Assembly: GCA_030603385.1 (NCBI GenBank)
Contig: JAUVXW010000020.1
Location: 1 to 64,000 of the forward strand
Reading direction: 5' to 3'
Length of the DNA: 64,000 bases
Origin: Promethearchaeota archaeon
Lineage (GTDB): Archaea > Asgardarchaeota > Lokiarchaeia > Sigyniarchaeales > SOKP01
The notes under the pieces were generated by a model that saw only the letters and a program-made list of their open reading frames with translations, had not been told where the DNA came from and did no database searches. Positions 1 to 48,968 of this stretch are shown here, piece after piece (the stretch's first letter is position 1; every line of letters begins with the position of its first letter). The position numbers were made by a program, and so were the translations under genes.

Positions 1-469
1 AGGAGAATCTCTTGATTGGTTCTTTTTTCCATGGTTTGATAATCCTTACCTTCCTAAATATAACTTTGTTAATGTAATATATGATGCTACGAGTAAGATA
101 ATCAATATTACAATTGAAGATATCAATGAAAATTTAAATCAGTATAGTTATTCACAACAAGTTCTCCTTAATATTTTCAGCTCTGAATCAAGTTTAATAT
201 TCTCTGATAGCAAATGGATTAATGGCACAACTACTTTATTAATACAACTTGAAAAAACACCCCAACGTGTAGTATTAAATTATGCTGATTTTGTTCTTGT
301 CCAATTTTCGGATTATAATTTGGATTACATAGAAACTACTGATATAACAATTATAAAAAAGGCACGACAACAAATTCCGGGCTATAATATTATATTAATT
401 CTTCTTACTTTTAGTGCAGTAGGATTGATAATAAGAACCAAGAAATCACTAATTTCTATGAATAAATAA
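1..469 (+). CDS. 5'-truncated secreted/surface protein, probably the C-terminus of an M1 aminopeptidase-like protein, with an IPGY-type (Loki-CTERM-like) sorting signal
   Basis: Open frame from position 2 to TAA 467-469: GESLDWFFFPWFDNPYLP (resembles the DLDWFFxQW segment of M1 peptidases) ... QQIPGYNIILILLTFSAVGLIIRTKK (motif, TM helix, basic tail). Confidence 0.6.
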   Translation, partial: GESLDWFFFPWFDNPYLPKYNFVNVIYDATSKIINITIEDINENLNQYSYSQQVLLNIFSSESSLIFSDSKWINGTTTLLIQLEKTPQRVVLNYADFVLVQFSDYNLDYIETTDITIIKKARQQIPGYNIILILLTFSAVGLIIRTKKSLISMNK

Positions 470-759
470 ATCAAATCTTTTTTTTTATTTAATCTCAAAT
501 TGAATATAAATCGCGAATATTTCTTATTTAAATTTTGAAAATGCCTTAAATCATTAATCTTAATTAAGAAAAATTAACTATAAAGATCTTCATTGAAAAA
601 ATAATGGGCGAGATTATCTTTTTAGTTTGAATTCTTTTATCAAAATTGAAATTATGAAATCTAATCAGAAAAAATAAATTATCTCCATAATTTCATAAAC
701 CAATAAGATTTAATGTAATATTTCAAATCAACAAAAAATATTTGGTGAAGTTTTACAAA

Positions 760-766
760 AAGGTGA
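760..766 (+). promoter_or_regulatory. Shine-Dalgarno AAGGTGA upstream of the hdrA TTG start
   Basis: AAGGTGA ends 5 nt before TTG at 772. The same GGTGA motif precedes rps4 and other genes in the window. Confidence 0.6.
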
Positions 767-771
767 ATTAG

Positions 772-2784
772 TTGTCTGATAAACAGACCAAGGAGAGTTT
801 AAGAATCGGAGTTTATATATGTAGATGAGGTGTAAATATCGGAGCTGCTGTTGATTGCGACGCTGTAAGAGATTATGTAGAGAGAAATGCAGCAAAAAGT
901 AGCGTTGTTATTGCCCGAGTAAATGATTTTACTTGCAGTGATCCAGGACAAAATATAATTAGAAATGATATACTCGACCTAGATCTAAATCGAGTTGTGG
1001 TTGCTGCTTGTACGCCAAAAATACACGAACCAACTTATAGAGCAGTTTTAGCGGAAGCTGGATTAAGTTCTTATTATTTTCAGATGGTTAATCTTCGTGA
1101 ACATTGCTCTTTTGTACATGCTAAAGATAGGGAAGGTGCCACTGAGAAAGCTATAAGATTGGTCCAAGCTGGTATAAATCGTGCTCGAGAATTAGAAATA
1201 ATACCAAGAAAAGAAATACCCGTAGAAAAAGCAGTTTTAGTTATAGGAGCTGGAATTGCTGGAATGAATGCAGCATTAGATCTCGCAAATCAAGGAATCC
1301 CAGTCTATTTAGTAGAAAATGAAGCTACAATTGGCGGAAAGATGGCACAATTAGATAGAATATATCCAACTGATGATTGTGGAATATGAGTTTTAGCACC
1401 AATAATGGTAAATGCTTCAAAACACCCAAACATAAATTTATTCACTTATAGTGATATTATAGAGTTTGGTGGAATACCTGGAGATTATAAGGTTAAAATT
1501 AGAAAGAATGCTCGGTATGTTGACGAAAAAAAATGTACTGGATGCGGGTTATGCACGACTAAGTGTCCTATTAAAGTTCCCAGTGAGTTTGATAGAGGTA
1601 TTGGTGAAAGAAATGCAATTTATATCCCTTTTCCCCAAGCCGTACCAAAACTAGCTGTTATGGATAGAAGTGTGTGCATTGACTGTAAGAATTGTGAACG
1701 AACATGTCCTGCTGAAGCAATTGACTTTGAACAAGAAGCAGAATATTTCGATGTTAAGGTAGGAGCAGCAATTGTTGCTACAGGATGGGATGAATATCCA
1801 ATATGGGAGTCAAACGAATATAATTATGGATATTATCCTGACGTGATTACACAAATAGAACTAGAAAGAATGTTAAGTCCTATAGGACCTACTGGAGGAC
1901 ATATTTACAGAATTTCCACAGGAGAAATACCAAAAATTATTGTAATGGTTCAATGTGTAGGTTCCAGAGATATAAACGCTAACCCGTATTGTTCTTTCGT
2001 TTGTTGTAGCGTTGCACTTAAGAATGCTCAATTACTCAAGCAAGAATATCCAGACATGGATGTAATTATATTCTATATCGATATGCGAACAACAGATAAG
2101 GGCAATGAAGAATATTATAGAAAAATAAGAGAATCGGGGGTACGAATGATTAGGGGAAAAGTGGGTGAAATAATAGAAGATAATAAAACGAATAAGTTAA
2201 AAGTCAGAGCATATTCGTCTTTAACTGGTGAAATTGTAAAAATCGATGCTGATTTAGTAGTATTGTCAACAGGAATGAATCCTTCAAAAGGAACTGAAGA
2301 AATGATCCAGGTAATGGGGTTAAACAAAGGTCCAGGAGGCTTCCTTTCAGAAATCCATGGATGCTTAAGCCCACAAGAAACTAAAGATGTTGGGATTTAC
2401 ATTGCTGGATGCGCCGCAGGTCCAAAAAACATTCCTTATTCGGTTTCTTCAGCATTAGCTGCCGCAAGTAAAGTATCAACTCTTTTATCTCATGATACTT
2501 TTAATCAAGAATTAATTATTGCTGAAGTAGATGAAGATTTATGTATGGGTTGTCATAGGTGTGAGAAACTATGTTACTATGAAGCAATAAAGGTTAATGA
2601 AGATGAGATTGCTGAAGTTGATGATTTAAAATGCAAAGGATGTGGTGTATGTATATCATCTTGTCCAGCAAGAGCCATTGACTTAAAATATTATCGAGAT
2701 CGACAGTTTACTCAGGAAATTAAAGGTATTGGTTGTAGTGAAGTTGAAACAATAGAAAAAATATCTGAAAGTCTTGAAGTATAA
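772..2784 (+). CDS. hdrA: Heterodisulfide reductase subunit A-like flavoprotein, selenoprotein with 2 Sec (U19, U206), about 670 aa
   Basis: One frame from TTG 772 through ORFs 997-1389 and 1405-2784, broken only by TGA 826-828 (RIGVYICR-U-GVNI, the conserved VxxCxCGxNI) and TGA 1387-1389 (PTDDCGI-U-VLAP, the conserved PTxDCxxC). Also has AACTPKIHE, GAGIAG FAD motif, inserted 2x[4Fe-4S] ferredoxin, QCVGSRD...YCSFVCC and a C-terminal ferredoxin. Confidence 0.93.
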
Positions 2785-2805
2785 ACAGTATAGAGGTTAA
2801 TAATA

Positions 2806-3234
2806 ATGTCTAATACAAAAAATCGTGATTCAAGAAAAATCATAGCTTTTGGCTGTGATAAGTGAGGATATTCTGTAGCAGATTTAACAGGTACAACAAG
2901 AAGATCTTACTCTACAGATTTTCATCTCATTAGAGTGAGATGTACAGGACGAGTAGGAATTCATTTGATTATGGAAGCTTTCCTGCATGGTGCGGATGGT
3001 GTAGCGATAATTTCTTGAGAGGAAGGAGAATGCGAATTTGGGAATGGTAATATGATCACTTATGAACATATCATTACATTAAAGAAATTATTAAAACATG
3101 AAGGTATTTCTGAAGATCGTGTTCAACAATATTTTTGCTCAGCAGCAGAAGTTGAAAAATTTATTAACTCAGTTAAAGATATTTCCACAAAAATTCATGC
3201 ACTCCCTCCTATACCAAAAACTAATCCGAAATAG
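2806..3234 (+). CDS. mvhD: Hydrogenase iron-sulfur subunit MvhD/VhuD ([2Fe-2S]), selenoprotein with 2 Sec (U20, U71), 142 aa
   Basis: ATG 2806 after GAGGT, in frame with ORF 3052-3234. KIIAFGCDK-U-GYSVAD (TGA 2863-2865, the CxxC motif), RVRCTGRV, AFLHGADGVAIIS-U-EEGEC (TGA 3016-3018, the GCxxGxC motif), CSAAE. Confidence 0.93.
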
Positions 3235-3294
3235 AATGATCTTTTCAAAAAAACTATAGTTGAGAAGAAACTAACCCCAGCCCGGGTTTTCGGA
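3225..3294 (+). promoter_or_regulatory. Candidate SECIS element (3' UTR stem-loop) for hdrA-mvhD
   Basis: Directly after the mvhD stop: AUGA (3236-3239), stem CUUUUC(AA)/(UU)GAGAAG (3241-3248/3260-3267), A-rich apical region and a 3' GA. Outer stem UCCGAAA/UUUCGGA (3225-3231/3288-3294) and a second hairpin AACCC/GGGUU. The upper-stem register does not fit the canonical eukaryotic SECIS perfectly. Confidence 0.55.
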
Positions 3295-3327
3295 AAAATT
3301 TGAATTTAAAAAATAACAAGTATTATT

Positions 3328-4830
3328 ATGAGTTTAGAAGAAAAATTTTCATGGGAATTTTTAAAAAATGTAGCGGATGCTTTAGATTCATATAGAATTC
3401 GAGCACTAATTGATGCTAAAAAAGATATTTTAGAGGCTGGAATTTATGATGAATCCCAATACGACACTATCCTTTTTACAATGTTAGATGAAGAGAAATT
3501 AAAATATTCCCTATATAATTTCTTAAAAAATAATTCTAAAAGTAATTTAAAAACTCTTATCGAGTATTCTGAAGATACTTCTATTGAATTAAATAAGACT
3601 TTGAGTTTGTTAGAAATACTCAAAAATGAAAAACTTGTAGATGTGGAAGAATTACATGATAAAATTGAAGGAGATGAGAATAATCCAGTAAAACTCGTCT
3701 TTAAAGACTTCGCAATAGAGGTTAATGATGGAGAAATTTCAAAACTAAAACCTATTTATGAACCTGTTATTGGTAATGGCTCAATCGTGGATACCAACAA
3801 TTGTTCGGGATGTGGGCTTTGTCAAGGTATATGTCCTATGGATTGTATTAATATTAGCAACGGATTTGGGGAAATCGATGATACAAAATGTATCAGATGT
3901 GGATTGTGTTATTTTGTTTGTCCGCGATCATATCTACCTGTTAAAATATTAAATATGAGCTTAGAAAATACTTCGGAAATAAAAGAATATTCCGAAATTG
4001 GTTATTATGTTGAAGTCTTTTCAGCTAGAACAAAAATTAAAGAAATTGCTTCTGTATGTCAAGATGGCGGTATATCTAGCACTTGTTTATATTATCTTTT
4101 TGAACAAGGAAAGATCAACTATGCTCTTGGTGCTAAAATGAGTGATGATCCGTGGAGACCAGAACCGTTATTAATTAAGAGTAAAGAAGATATCATATCT
4201 ACAGCTGGAACCAAATATGTTAATAATCCAAATTTAAGTCTATTAAACGATTTAAATGAAAATTCAAAAACAATAGCTGTTGTTGGAGTTCCATGCCAAA
4301 TGCAGGCGTTATTGAAATCAAAAATATATGATATTGCTATTCCTTCATTAAAAAATATAGAATATCGAATTGGAATTTTTTGTATGGAATCTTTTTCCTA
4401 TGAATCTCTATTAAAGATATGTGAGAAATTAAATGTTGATGTAAAGAATGTTAAGAAAATGGATATTAATAAAGGAAAATTCTTTGTTTATACTAAGAAC
4501 GGGGATGAATTTAATGTTCCGATTAAGGAAATTTCACATTTAGGCCGAAAAGATTGCGAAGTTTGTTTTGATTTAACATCCGAATCGGCAGATATTTCCA
4601 TTGGTTCTATTGGTTCTCCTTCTGGATGGAATACCGTAATTATAAGAACTGAGAAAGGAAAGCAATTATATAATGAGCTATTAGCGAATAAATTAATTGA
4701 ATCAAAACCAATAAGTGAAGTAAAACCTGGATTACCTTTGCTTAAAAGAATTGCAAATAGTAAAAAAAATAATTGTAAAAACCATATTAACAAAAAAAAA
4801 GAGAAAAATAAAAGGATTCCAACTTATTAA
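3328..4830 (+). CDS. frhB: F420 hydrogenase/dehydrogenase beta subunit (FrhB/FdhB family) with 2x[4Fe-4S] ferredoxin and a ~145-aa N-terminal extension
   Basis: CSGCGLCQGICP and CIRCGLCYFVCPR ferredoxin motifs; CQDGG, AGTKY, VVGVPCQ, IGIFCMESF, CEVCFD, ADISIGSIGSPSGWNTVIIRTEKG. Confidence 0.88.
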   Translation: MSLEEKFSWEFLKNVADALDSYRIRALIDAKKDILEAGIYDESQYDTILFTMLDEEKLKYSLYNFLKNNSKSNLKTLIEYSEDTSIELNKTLSLLEILKNEKLVDVEELHDKIEGDENNPVKLVFKDFAIEVNDGEISKLKPIYEPVIGNGSIVDTNNCSGCGLCQGICPMDCINISNGFGEIDDTKCIRCGLCYFVCPRSYLPVKILNMSLENTSEIKEYSEIGYYVEVFSARTKIKEIASVCQDGGISSTCLYYLFEQGKINYALGAKMSDDPWRPEPLLIKSKEDIISTAGTKYVNNPNLSLLNDLNENSKTIAVVGVPCQMQALLKSKIYDIAIPSLKNIEYRIGIFCMESFSYESLLKICEKLNVDVKNVKKMDINKGKFFVYTKNGDEFNVPIKEISHLGRKDCEVCFDLTSESADISIGSIGSPSGWNTVIIRTEKGKQLYNELLANKLIESKPISEVKPGLPLLKRIANSKKNNCKNHINKKKEKNKRIPTY

Positions 4831-5029
4831 ATTCCTCATCATATTATTATTTCTTGAAATTTCAAAGTTTTTTAAGAATTGCTCTAATTAGGTGGGAATA
4901 TTAAAAATAAATATGAAATTGTCTTTTATGATGATGATGTAAAATTTATTCCATGCGGAATTGCCTTGTTAATTATAAAAGTAAATTATCATTTTGAGTA
5001 GAAGATTTTTGGAAAGTAAAAAATATAGT

Positions 5030-5500
5030 ATGTCACGAATTAAACCAGTCTTTTCTTTACTGAGATTCTTGATACCCCTTATTGCCATCTTTTTTGGCTT
5101 TTTCTATTGGCTTGAGGGATTTAAATATTTTATTAGAGATAGTGAAATCAGGATTTATGTTACCGAGTTTACATTTTGTAGTTTTTTTTTTTTAAAACTC
5201 TTTTTAATGAATATTTATCATATTTCTCTTGGTCTTAATGCTTTTTTATTTATTTTAGGATTAATTTATTACATATTAAGATATCAGCAGAATAAAGAAA
5301 ATGTACAGGGAACCTCTGAGGAATATAAGTCTCTAAGAATTTTGATTCTCATTATCCTTCTTATTTGTTTGATTCCTGAAATATTCGTTATTATAAACAT
5401 GAATTTGGAAAACACAAATATTGAAAGTATTACTCAGCAAGATTCAGTAAATAAATTTATACCTATAATTATTTCACATGGATTTCTCGTGGTTTTTTAA
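5030..5500 (+). CDS. Hypothetical multi-pass membrane protein
   Basis: ORF 4994-5500 with first ATG at 5030 and about 4 hydrophobic segments. Overlaps the convergent gene by 32 nt. Confidence 0.5.
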   Translation: MSRIKPVFSLLRFLIPLIAIFFGFFYWLEGFKYFIRDSEIRIYVTEFTFCSFFFLKLFLMNIYHISLGLNAFLFILGLIYYILRYQQNKENVQGTSEEYKSLRILILIILLICLIPEIFVIINMNLENTNIESITQQDSVNKFIPIIISHGFLVVF

Positions 5501-46721: not shown

Positions 46722-48968
46722 TTAAATATCCATTAAGTTGGGTATTGTAGAATCGTATAATCTCTTGATCTTCACTAGGTCGAGTTTAAATTGTTTTGAT
46801 TTAATTCCACTAATTATAATTTCTGGTTTTGAAATTAGTATACCAATTTTTTTAATATCTATCTTAAATTGTGTAGCAAGATCAACTATAAGATCATGAT
46901 CTTTTGGATTTGTTTCAATAACAAATCTGCCAACTGTTTCACTAAACAGAAATTCATCATCTCTTAATTTTTTGTCATAACAATTAGTAAAATCAAGATT
47001 TGCTCCTAATTTATTTTTAAAACACATCTCTGCAATTGTGATTACAACACCACCTTTATTTACATCGTGATTTGCTTTCACAAGATTTCGATTATATAAT
47101 TCAAAAAGAAATTCCCATATGGCTTTTATTTTCTCTTCATCTACAGTTGGAGGAACACCACCTTCAATATTATGGATGACAGAATGGTATTCTGATCCTC
47201 CTAATTCCGCTTTAGTTTCTCCTATTAGGAAAATATCATTACCTACATCTTTAAAAGGAAGAGTTATAATGTTTTTTTCGCCTTCTATGATACCCACTAT
47301 CATAATCATAGGTGTCGCTTTAATTGCAGTTTTTTTAACTTCATCTTCATTATAAAATGATACATTGCCACCTACAATTGGAATCTTAAAAGTTCTGCAA
47401 AAGTCATTCATACCGTCTACAGCTTTAGAAAAATACCAAAATGATTCAGGTATTTCAGGATTCCCAAAGTTACAACAATTTACCATTGCCATGGGCTTTG
47501 CTCCATTTGCTATAACATTCCCGCATTCTTCAACTAGAGCTCCTTTAGCACCTTCATAAGGGTCTAAATAACAATGTTTTGAATTCACACCTACACTTGC
47601 AGCAATAAATTTATCGGTACCTATTATTCTAAGAATACCTGAATCTCCTTCGCCACATTTTACAACAGACCGAATTCCAACTTCATGATCGTATTGACGG
47701 TAAACCCATTCTTTACTACAGATGTTTTCTGAAGCAATTAATTTATAAATAATTTCATCTAAACCTAAAGAAGGTTTAGGTGTTTTTTGAGATAATAAGT
47801 CCTCTAAATAATCTGGTTTTTTTTCTTCCCGTTTAAAAGTTGGGGACTCTGAAAGAGCTTTTGCCGGCATGTTTACAACCAAATTTTCTTCATCAAATAC
47901 TTTAAGTACTTTTGAATCATCTGTTCTACCGATAACAGCAAACGCCATTTCATATTTTCTAAATACATCAAGAACGGTATCTAGCCCTTCAGGTTTAACA
48001 ATAAAAGCCATTCGTTCTTGTGATTCAGAGAGCATTATTTCATAAGAGGTCATTCCTGGTTCTCTTGTAAATACTTTTCTTAAATCTACCTCTGCTCCTG
48101 TATTTCCATCACCAGTTAATTCGCTTGTTGCACAAGTTAACCCTCCTCCTCCAAGATCTTTTAATCCTCTTACAAAACCAGTCTTTACTGCCTCCAATGT
48201 TGATTCAATAATCATCTTTTTGGTAAATGGATCACCAATCTGAACTGCGGGCCTATCTGCTTCTGACATTTCTGTTAGAGTGCGAGAAGCAAAAGTTACC
48301 CCATGTATTCCGTCTCTTCCTGTGGATCCACCCATTAAAATTAAGTAATCACCCGGAATGTATGCCCTACTTGGCGCATGCTCAAAATCCTCAATTGTTC
48401 CTAATCCTATGCAAGCTACATTAACAAGGCAATTACTTTCAAAACTATCATCAAATTCAACTTCACCCCCAATTGTAGGAATCCCCGTACAATTTCCATA
48501 ATCTGCTATTCCTTTTACAACATATTTAAATAACCATTGTGAATGTGGATTGTTTTTTAATTTACCAAATCTTAAGGGATCTAATAATGCGATTGGGCGC
48601 ACTCCCATACAAAGTATGTCCCTGATGATACCGCCGATGCCCGTAGCAGCTCCGTGATAAGGTTCAATTGCAGAAGGATGGTTATGAGACTCAATTCGAA
48701 ATGCTAGAGCATATCCATCACCGATATCAATTACTCCCGCATCTTGACCCGGACCAGCTAAAACATAATTATAATTTTCTTCAGCATTTTCAAATAATTT
48801 CAATTTTGGGCGGGATGATTTATAGGAACAATGTTCGGACCACATCACATCAAAGGCACCAAGCTCAGTAATACTTGGCTCCCTCCCCAATAACTCCTTT
48901 ACTTTTTCAAACTCTCCTTCAGTCATCTCTATGTTTGCTTCTTTTCCATTCAATTCTACCTTAGTCAT
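46722..48968 (-). CDS. purL: Phosphoribosylformylglycinamidine synthase subunit PurL
   Basis: WSEHCSYKSS, ESHNHPS, TGRDGIHG, SESQERM, GGNVSFYN. Confidence 0.96.
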   Translation of the reverse strand: MTKVELNGKEANIEMTEGEFEKVKELLGREPSITELGAFDVMWSEHCSYKSSRPKLKLFENAEENYNYVLAGPGQDAGVIDIGDGYALAFRIESHNHPSAIEPYHGAATGIGGIIRDILCMGVRPIALLDPLRFGKLKNNPHSQWLFKYVVKGIADYGNCTGIPTIGGEVEFDDSFESNCLVNVACIGLGTIEDFEHAPSRAYIPGDYLILMGGSTGRDGIHGVTFASRTLTEMSEADRPAVQIGDPFTKKMIIESTLEAVKTGFVRGLKDLGGGGLTCATSELTGDGNTGAEVDLRKVFTREPGMTSYEIMLSESQERMAFIVKPEGLDTVLDVFRKYEMAFAVIGRTDDSKVLKVFDEENLVVNMPAKALSESPTFKREEKKPDYLEDLLSQKTPKPSLGLDEIIYKLIASENICSKEWVYRQYDHEVGIRSVVKCGEGDSGILRIIGTDKFIAASVGVNSKHCYLDPYEGAKGALVEECGNVIANGAKPMAMVNCCNFGNPEIPESFWYFSKAVDGMNDFCRTFKIPIVGGNVSFYNEDEVKKTAIKATPMIMIVGIIEGEKNIITLPFKDVGNDIFLIGETKAELGGSEYHSVIHNIEGGVPPTVDEEKIKAIWEFLFELYNRNLVKANHDVNKGGVVITIAEMCFKNKLGANLDFTNCYDKKLRDDEFLFSETVGRFVIETNPKDHDLIVDLATQFKIDIKKIGILISKPEIIISGIKSKQFKLDLVKIKRLYDSTIPNLMDI

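Follow-up and report, generated by a model that had tools for sequence, protein, structure and literature searches.

Positions 772 to 3,234 of a 64,000-nucleotide stretch of DNA from a Promethearchaeota archaeon of the Lokiarchaeia (contig JAUVXW010000020.1; the whole stretch is called the window here) raise the question of whether this region holds the remains of broken genes or two intact genes in which TGA does not mean stop. Under translation table 11 the region is split into open reading frames (ORFs) at 997-1389, 1405-2784 and 3052-3234, the three broken ORFs that the initial annotation had expected of standard pipelines. When TGA is translated as U (selenocysteine, Sec), hdrA (772-2784) and mvhD (2806-3234; vhuD below) each form one continuous frame, as that annotation had claimed, with translations of 670 and 142 residues, and the hdrA stop lies 21 nt from the mvhD start on the same strand. 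From the comparative evidence set out below, we consider it highly probable that these genes are a Lokiarchaeial hdrA-vhuD selenoprotein pair, in which all four UGA codons would be decoded as Sec via one Sec insertion sequence (SECIS) element, a lokiSECIS, located after vhuD. The earlier proposal that the four UGAs stand for Sec is supported by the conservation of the TGA codons, by the alternation of Sec with Cys at VhuD position 71 and, in distant homologues, at HdrA position 19, by the covarying lokiSECIS and by the presence of most of the Sec machinery.

Four UGA codons at conserved cysteine positions

The two genes and the four codons are as follows.

772..2784, + strand: hdrA, 670 codons, TTG start, TAA stop, two in-frame UGA
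826..828, + strand: Sec19 of HdrA (N-terminal domain, motif C-R-U); counterpart Cys13 in 5odc_A, where it is the latter Cys of the N-terminal C-x-C
1387..1389, + strand: Sec206 of HdrA (canonical Sec site of HdrA, motif DDCGIU); counterparts Cys197 in 5odc_A and X (Sec) in 9sfi_A
2806..3234, + strand: mvhD/vhuD, 142 codons, ATG start, TAG stop, two in-frame UGA
2863..2865, + strand: Sec20 of VhuD (motif CDKU); counterparts Cys16 in 5odc_D and X (Sec) in 9sfi_K
3016..3018, + strand: Sec71 of VhuD (motif SUEEGEC); counterparts Cys67 in 5odc_D and X (Sec) in 9sfi_K

All four TGA codons fall on Cys columns, an arrangement with a chance probability of about 4e-6 given 31/670 Cys columns in HdrA and 6/142 in VhuD. 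That they sit at conserved Cys positions (CRU, DDCGIU, CDKU and SUEEGEC) had been suggested beforehand, and is borne out by Cys in the solved structures and by Sec/Cys columns in relatives. Relatives were drawn in two sets: 30 loci fetched from a genome search with HdrA, which was matched in 40 of 41 related genomes, and a species-level set with one genome per GTDB species, comprising 80 further loci, almost all from metagenome-assembled genomes (MAGs) of Promethearchaeota/Promethearchaeia. Each of the full-length same-genus HdrA matches (72-95% identity) has at least two in-frame TGA codons. HdrA-206 is U in 81/81 sequences of the species-level set and in 29/29 of the 30-locus set, and VhuD-20 is U in 74/74 and 27/27, respectively. 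VhuD-71 alternates between U and C (encoded by TGY in the species-level set), with counts of 64 and 10 in the species-level set and 24 and 3 in the 30-locus set. HdrA-19 is U in 79/79 informative sequences at the species level; in the 30-locus set, 24 sequences have U there and 4 distant homologues have C. The initial annotation had set this N-terminal C-x-C site apart as an addition to the DDCxxU site. The addition holds, as these counts show, whereas its novelty does not: Sec is found at position 19 in all five Sec-HdrA paralogues of the genome and in every close orthologue, and Sec19 is therefore a standard Loki site. Extra Sec residues occur in some relatives at HdrA 80 and 308 (species-level set) and 55 (30-locus set), all of which are Cys in the present HdrA.

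The codons flanking the UGAs differ synonymously among orthologues (GGA/GGC/GGT/GGG; GTT/GTA/GTC), which argues for selection on a continuous protein and for translation past the UGA. The base following the UGA (+4) is G at three sites; it was considered as a recoding signal and rejected, since it merely reflects conserved Gly/Val codons. In one relative, an HdrA paralogue (G023:C1) has a third in-frame TGA at query position 117, in a column that is Ala/Arg/Ser in all others, and this TGA is probably an error or a sign of a pseudogene, not Sec.

The read-through proteins can also be placed in their families. Against solved HdrA chains, HdrA scored 512-714 bits (9sfi_A 714, 5odc_A 678, 8rvu_a 656), with residues 8-653 spanning residues 2-649 of 5odc_A, i.e., the full length. 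Domain matches were to Fer4 and Pyr_redox_2 (flavin adenine dinucleotide (FAD)/thioredoxin-reductase-like), and the layout is that of solved HdrA, with an N-terminal iron-sulfur (Fe-S) domain, a FAD domain, and inserted and C-terminal 2x[4Fe-4S] ferredoxin domains. For both proteins the best NCBIfam model is HdrA2 of Methanosarcina, in which HdrA is fused to MvhD (NF040770); HdrA covers model positions 1-642 and VhuD 643-773, so that the pair represents a split form of the same architecture. It differs from HdrA2 in consisting of separate genes, in having Sec, in lacking adjacent hdrBC, and in scoring 800 bits (HdrA) and 115 bits (VhuD) against a cut-off of 1100 bits. As HdrA falls below the NCBIfam equivalog cut-offs, a role in CoM-S-S-CoB reduction is not implied. 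VhuD matched PF02662 (FlpD/MvhD) with 125 bits, 5odc_D with 97 bits and 9sfi_K with 84 bits, and its AlphaFold model (predicted local distance difference test score, 85.7) superimposed on 5odc_D with a template modeling score of 0.87 and a root-mean-square deviation of 1.3 A. A homology between HdrA's N-terminal domain and MvhD, by which HdrA-19/80 would correspond to VhuD-20/71, was considered and rejected (BLASTP E 8.9; hhalign probability 3.7%, E 0.011); hhalign nonetheless pairs VhuD C46 with HdrA C55 and VhuD U71 with HdrA C80. Fold searches with the VhuD model returned MvhD chains and generic flavodoxin-like folds, and no HdrA chain.

The lokiSECIS downstream of vhuD

The candidate recoding element begins one base past the vhuD stop.

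3236..3270, + strand: lokiSECIS; AUGA 3236-3239; 9-bp stem 3240-3248/3260-3268; 11-nt loop AAAAACUAUAG 3249-3259; AA 3269-3270
3225..3294, + strand: possible extended SECIS; lower helix UCCG/CGGA 3225-3228/3291-3294; side hairpin ACCC/GGGU 3274-3277/3284-3287

Its sequence, AUGA-UCUUUUCAA-AAAAACUAUAG-UUGAGAAGA-AA, has an A-rich loop, and the hairpin is the minimum-free-energy fold of its region. The element fits the published form, with AUGA, a 9-bp stem, an 11-nt loop starting AAAAA and an AUGA_AA core (PMC4989117, PMC11227280), the core variant reported in these two papers for Lokiarchaeia hdrA/frhD. Compensatory changes affect 7 of the 9 pairs among 37 orthologous elements, from which a covariance model (R1) was built. 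R1 gave the lokiSECIS 75.1 bits; searched with filters off against the + strand of positions 1-3227, it returned no second SECIS, just one partial match of 9.6 bits. Across the genome, R1 found five further places, three of them directly behind other Sec-HdrA or Sec-HdrA/VhuD genes. In Rfam, no family reached its gathering score in the window and nothing relevant appeared in positions 1-5500 up to E = 10; thus, no Rfam SECIS model recognises the lokiSECIS.

The element may be larger than its core. The RNAalifold consensus of 51 orthologues, together with pair counts, outlines a side hairpin (ACCC/GGGU), in which CG to UA changes occur in 6 sequences, and a lower helix (UCCG/CGGA), which is nearly invariant and has 2 compensatory cells. 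On these comparisons we have moderate confidence that the side hairpin is real and weak confidence in the lower helix, and the functional recoding element may be the whole of 3225-3294.

In the mechanism that we propose, the four UGAs would be decoded by tRNA-Sec(UCA), brought by an EFSec of the archaeal/eukaryote type, and the single eukaryote-like lokiSECIS would direct decoding at upstream UGAs, at distances of 220, 373, 1849 and 2410 nt, reaching back over the 21-nt boundary between the cistrons. One SECIS acting across that boundary would imply that hdrA and vhuD are presumably on one mRNA, and it is from the short gap and the single SECIS that co-transcription is presumed. Both the actual insertion of Sec and the long-range action of one SECIS are what we infer from sequence, as is the partnership with an FrhB-like protein described below.

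Sec machinery and alternative explanations

Contig C41 carries a gene for tRNA-Sec (48216-48308, + strand; 63 bits). Its anticodon is UCA, its acceptor stem has 9 bp and its T stem 4 bp, and SepSecS (C41:48372-49673, + strand; 486 bits) immediately adjoins it. About 5 kb from tRNA-Sec lies a 475-aa EFSec/SelB-like GTPase (C41:41842-43266, - strand), whose best family is selB with 234 bits, and PSTK was found on contig C1 (148 bits, E 3e-43). We also observed that EFSec, tRNA-Sec and SepSecS are loosely clustered, on C41:41842-49691, inside 8 kb. A 'tRNA-???' with a 4-base anticodon at C34:95147-95239 proved to be an ordinary tRNA with a 23-nt intron. Of the Sec machinery that the initial annotation had listed as a check on its proposal, tRNA-Sec, SepSecS, PSTK and the EFSec-like protein were thus recovered, and SelD was not.

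Several observations weigh against decoding of the pair as Sec via the lokiSECIS. SelD was found in the assembly neither by the family model nor by tblastn with the SelD of a congener; five weak matches to the AIRS family were HypE, ThiL, methanogenesis-marker-2-like and similar proteins, and tblastn picked up nothing beyond these. PSTK and EFSec, while being the best-matching families, remain below the NCBIfam curated cut-offs, which were trained on other lineages. The lokiSECIS alone is not unusually stable (z = -1.19), and its support comes from conservation and covariation, not from stability. Finally, the 37 orthologous elements used for covariation were chosen by a pattern demanding at least 8 of the 9 pairs. 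Their share of paired cells, 94.6% (38-64% with the partner shifted by 1-3 columns), is inflated by this choice; the compensatory changes are not.

Could the region instead consist of pseudogenes, or the TGAs be sequencing or assembly errors, so that the fragments do not belong to one protein? The three broken ORFs under table 11 and a source MAG with 7% estimated contamination would be in keeping with this, but these four TGAs are shared by about 80 species-level genomes, each assembled independently, with full-length protein identities of 67-95%, the flanking codons vary synonymously, and all four TGAs are on Cys columns, such that decay or error is hardly credible. A change of code, with TGA read throughout the genome as one of the standard amino acids (as in codes 4 or 25), or non-specific read-through, would likewise leave both frames open, as they are under any TGA-sense code. 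However, TGA ends 207 of 1530 long frames and so is still a stop codon, in-frame TGAs occur just at HdrA/VhuD Cys columns save for the one odd case at position 117 in one relative, and the genome has a dedicated tRNA-Sec, SepSecS, PSTK and EFSec, with SECIS elements specifically behind TGA-containing genes; we therefore attach practically no weight to this alternative.

Two further alternatives accept recoding and differ in how it would work. Each UGA might have its own local hairpin in the coding sequence, as a bacterial-type SECIS or a Sec redefinition element, with the 3' element as an accessory. Single-sequence folds do show hairpins after UGA 1387 and around UGA 2863, but in RNAalifold comparisons of 61-78 orthologous segments three UGAs lacked any consensus structure and the fourth had a trivial one of 2 bp, and the sole conserved, covarying structure is the one after vhuD, which makes local control highly improbable. 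Conversely, the UGAs might be recoded via tRNA-Sec and the SECIS in a cell without SelD, so that Cys (from a sulfur donor) or Ser/phospho-Ser is inserted, or the genes might be silent. The failure to find selD in the assembly is what speaks for this. Nevertheless, selD (as one or two Sec-containing genes, mostly a tandem pair) is present in 29 of 30 same-genus genomes and the assembly, in 58 contigs, is 94% complete, from which its absence is likely an assembly gap. Moreover, the genome encodes five Sec-HdrA (with Sec at 19, 55, 80 and 206 in varied combinations) and four Sec-VhuD (20 and 71), and the 22 Sec codons of these genes are unlikely to have been kept without a selenium donor. We judge insertion of anything other than Sec, or silence of the genes, to be improbable, and regard decoding of all four UGAs as Sec via the one lokiSECIS as by far the best account of the locus.

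Neighbouring genes, known systems and significance

Around the pair, two further features were identified.

759..766, + strand: AAAGGTGA, Shine-Dalgarno-like, 5 nt upstream of the hdrA start; kept in orthologous loci
3328..4830, + strand: FrhB/FdhB-like protein of 500 aa with a 2x[4Fe-4S] ferredoxin domain; PF04432, PF04422; NF006807 295 bits

The hdrA start codon at 772 (TTG) is TTG, ATG or GTG among orthologues. Over it, the first six hdrA codons (772-789) form an invariant hairpin, GUCUG-N5-7-CAGAC, in which the stem bases and the Ser, Gln and Thr codons (TCT, CAG, ACC) are fixed among the orthologues examined, with a variable loop; these codon choices look unusual for a genome of 31% GC. 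This hairpin may be a translation-initiation or regulatory structure, its stem being invariant and thus without covariation.

Downstream, the FrhB-like gene was matched by tblastn in 72 of the 80 loci, and in nearly all rows inspected the match, on the same strand as the SECIS, starts about 60-95 nt past it. In the present locus the gene is preceded by an AT-rich, TATA-like stretch, and the transcription unit may comprise three genes including it. The products of the pair are a flavin/Fe-S subunit (HdrA) and its [2Fe-2S] adaptor (VhuD), as parts of an electron-bifurcating module that probably works with the FrhB-like protein, which is probably their partner as the electron-input subunit. No HdrB/C-type CCG-domain gene is adjacent; the nearest in the window is about 50 kb off, and there are about 22 in the genome.

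Elsewhere in the genome there are many Cys-only HdrA/VhuD paralogues, as well as further loci with in-frame TGA codons. The ORF C10:102034-102543 (+ strand; ~156 aa), just downstream of a 315-aa frame, has adjacent TGA-TGA codons (...DVGC-U-U-EKV...), no Pfam match and its own lokiSECIS (C10:102564-102614, 30.4 bits). The ORF C20:5677-5910 (+ strand; ~76 aa), also with no Pfam match, encodes a hydrophobic stretch resembling a transmembrane helix and then ...NGGSS-U-AC..., and is followed by a lokiSECIS at C20:5921-5971 (54.6 bits). At C25:12474-14947 (- strand), a pair of Sec-HdrA (Sec at 19, 55 and 206) and Sec-VhuD has no SECIS behind it that R1 finds; by eye, a variant, AUGAGGCUGAGUU-AAAAAAAUGAG-AACUCAUGCUGA, with a shorter, bulged stem can be seen there.

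A multi-Sec HdrA-VhuD pair with a shared SECIS is already known, having been described for Lokiarchaeia in 2016 and catalogued again in 2024. In the 2016 description (Mariotti et al. 2016, PMC4989117), Lokiarchaeum HdrA has up to four Sec at five possible positions, VhuD has two Sec and is always directly downstream of HdrA, all Loki HdrA/VhuD genes being tandem pairs, hdrA never ends in UGA, and as many as six UGAs, spread over ~2 kb of what is presumed to be a polycistronic mRNA, are served by one lokiSECIS after VhuD. In the 2024 survey (ISME J, PMC11227280), HdrA and FrhD/VhuD make up the largest groups among 1,439 Asgard selenoproteins. The present locus resembles these tandem pairs in its gene order, with HdrA then VhuD on the same strand and a very short gap, in its multiple Sec including a site near residue 200 of HdrA and two in VhuD, in its single SECIS just past VhuD, and in an hdrA stop (TAA at 2782-2784) that is not UGA. 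Nothing essential differs, the present HdrA having two Sec where that text gives up to four; the side hairpin, the possible lower helix and the FrhB-like gene are not spelled out in the accessible part of the published text. One paralogue departs from the all-tandem statement found there (PMC4989117): C20:45961-47991 (+ strand) is a Sec-HdrA, 77% identical, whose Sec codons are at 19 and 206; it is followed by its own lokiSECIS directly past the stop (C20:47995-48045, 76.8 bits) and by no VhuD gene. Five orthologous loci (L038-L040, L096 and L097) likewise appear to have Sec-HdrA and a SECIS but no VhuD.

Compared with the HdrA (Sec197) and VhuD (two Sec) of Methanococcales (PDB 9sfi), which share the hdrA-vhuD synteny, Sec206, Sec20 and Sec71 match the three X positions and are the sites known from Methanococcales. 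Methanococcales HdrA has one Sec, whereas here there is an additional one at the N-terminal C-x-C, which is one of the extra sites of Loki type. The Methanococcales SECIS is of the archaeal type with one per gene, according to PMC4989117, whereas the element here is eukaryote-like and common to both genes. Like eukaryotic type I SECIS elements, the lokiSECIS lies 3' of the coding sequence, has a kink-turn-like AUGA...GA/AA core and carries unpaired A's in its apical loop, and it would likewise act from a distance. It differs in that its helix II is shorter, that it has no Rfam match and that it would serve two cistrons. According to the 2016 paper, no SBP2 is known in Loki (PMC4989117).

As a discovery the locus matters little, since pairs of this kind were the example on which the Lokiarchaeial Sec system was founded in 2016, and orthologues of the present pair occur in at least 80 species-level genomes. 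Its consequence for annotation is more direct: standard gene callers cut both genes at the UGAs, a problem also met with Methanocaldococcus hdrA (PMC12054007), so that five HdrA and four VhuD proteins would be lost from metabolic reconstructions of this MAG. For the function of Sec, the paralogue sites in this genome are limited to HdrA 206 and to HdrA 19, 55 and 80, where the N-terminal domain has its conserved Cys. Cys197, the counterpart of HdrA-206, ligates the N-terminal [4Fe-4S] cluster of the partner protomer in the solved dimer (PMC9012536), and in a recent cryo-electron microscopy map Sec197 appears bridged to a Cys (PMC13518236). We offer as a tentative and rather doubtful suggestion that the Loki Sec sites are gathered at a single redox centre and, separately, that the recoding signal is a larger three-helix inter-cistron element, flanked by vhuD and the frhB-like gene instead of lying in a terminal 3' untranslated region. 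If Sec19 and Sec206' (from the partner protomer) do meet at the N-terminal Fe-S centre, they would form a selenolate-ligated cluster or a diselenide relay, and not an isolated 'catalytic' Sec. For the recoding itself, the system would be the best example in nature of a single SECIS that works across a cistron boundary and at a distance of more than 2 kb.

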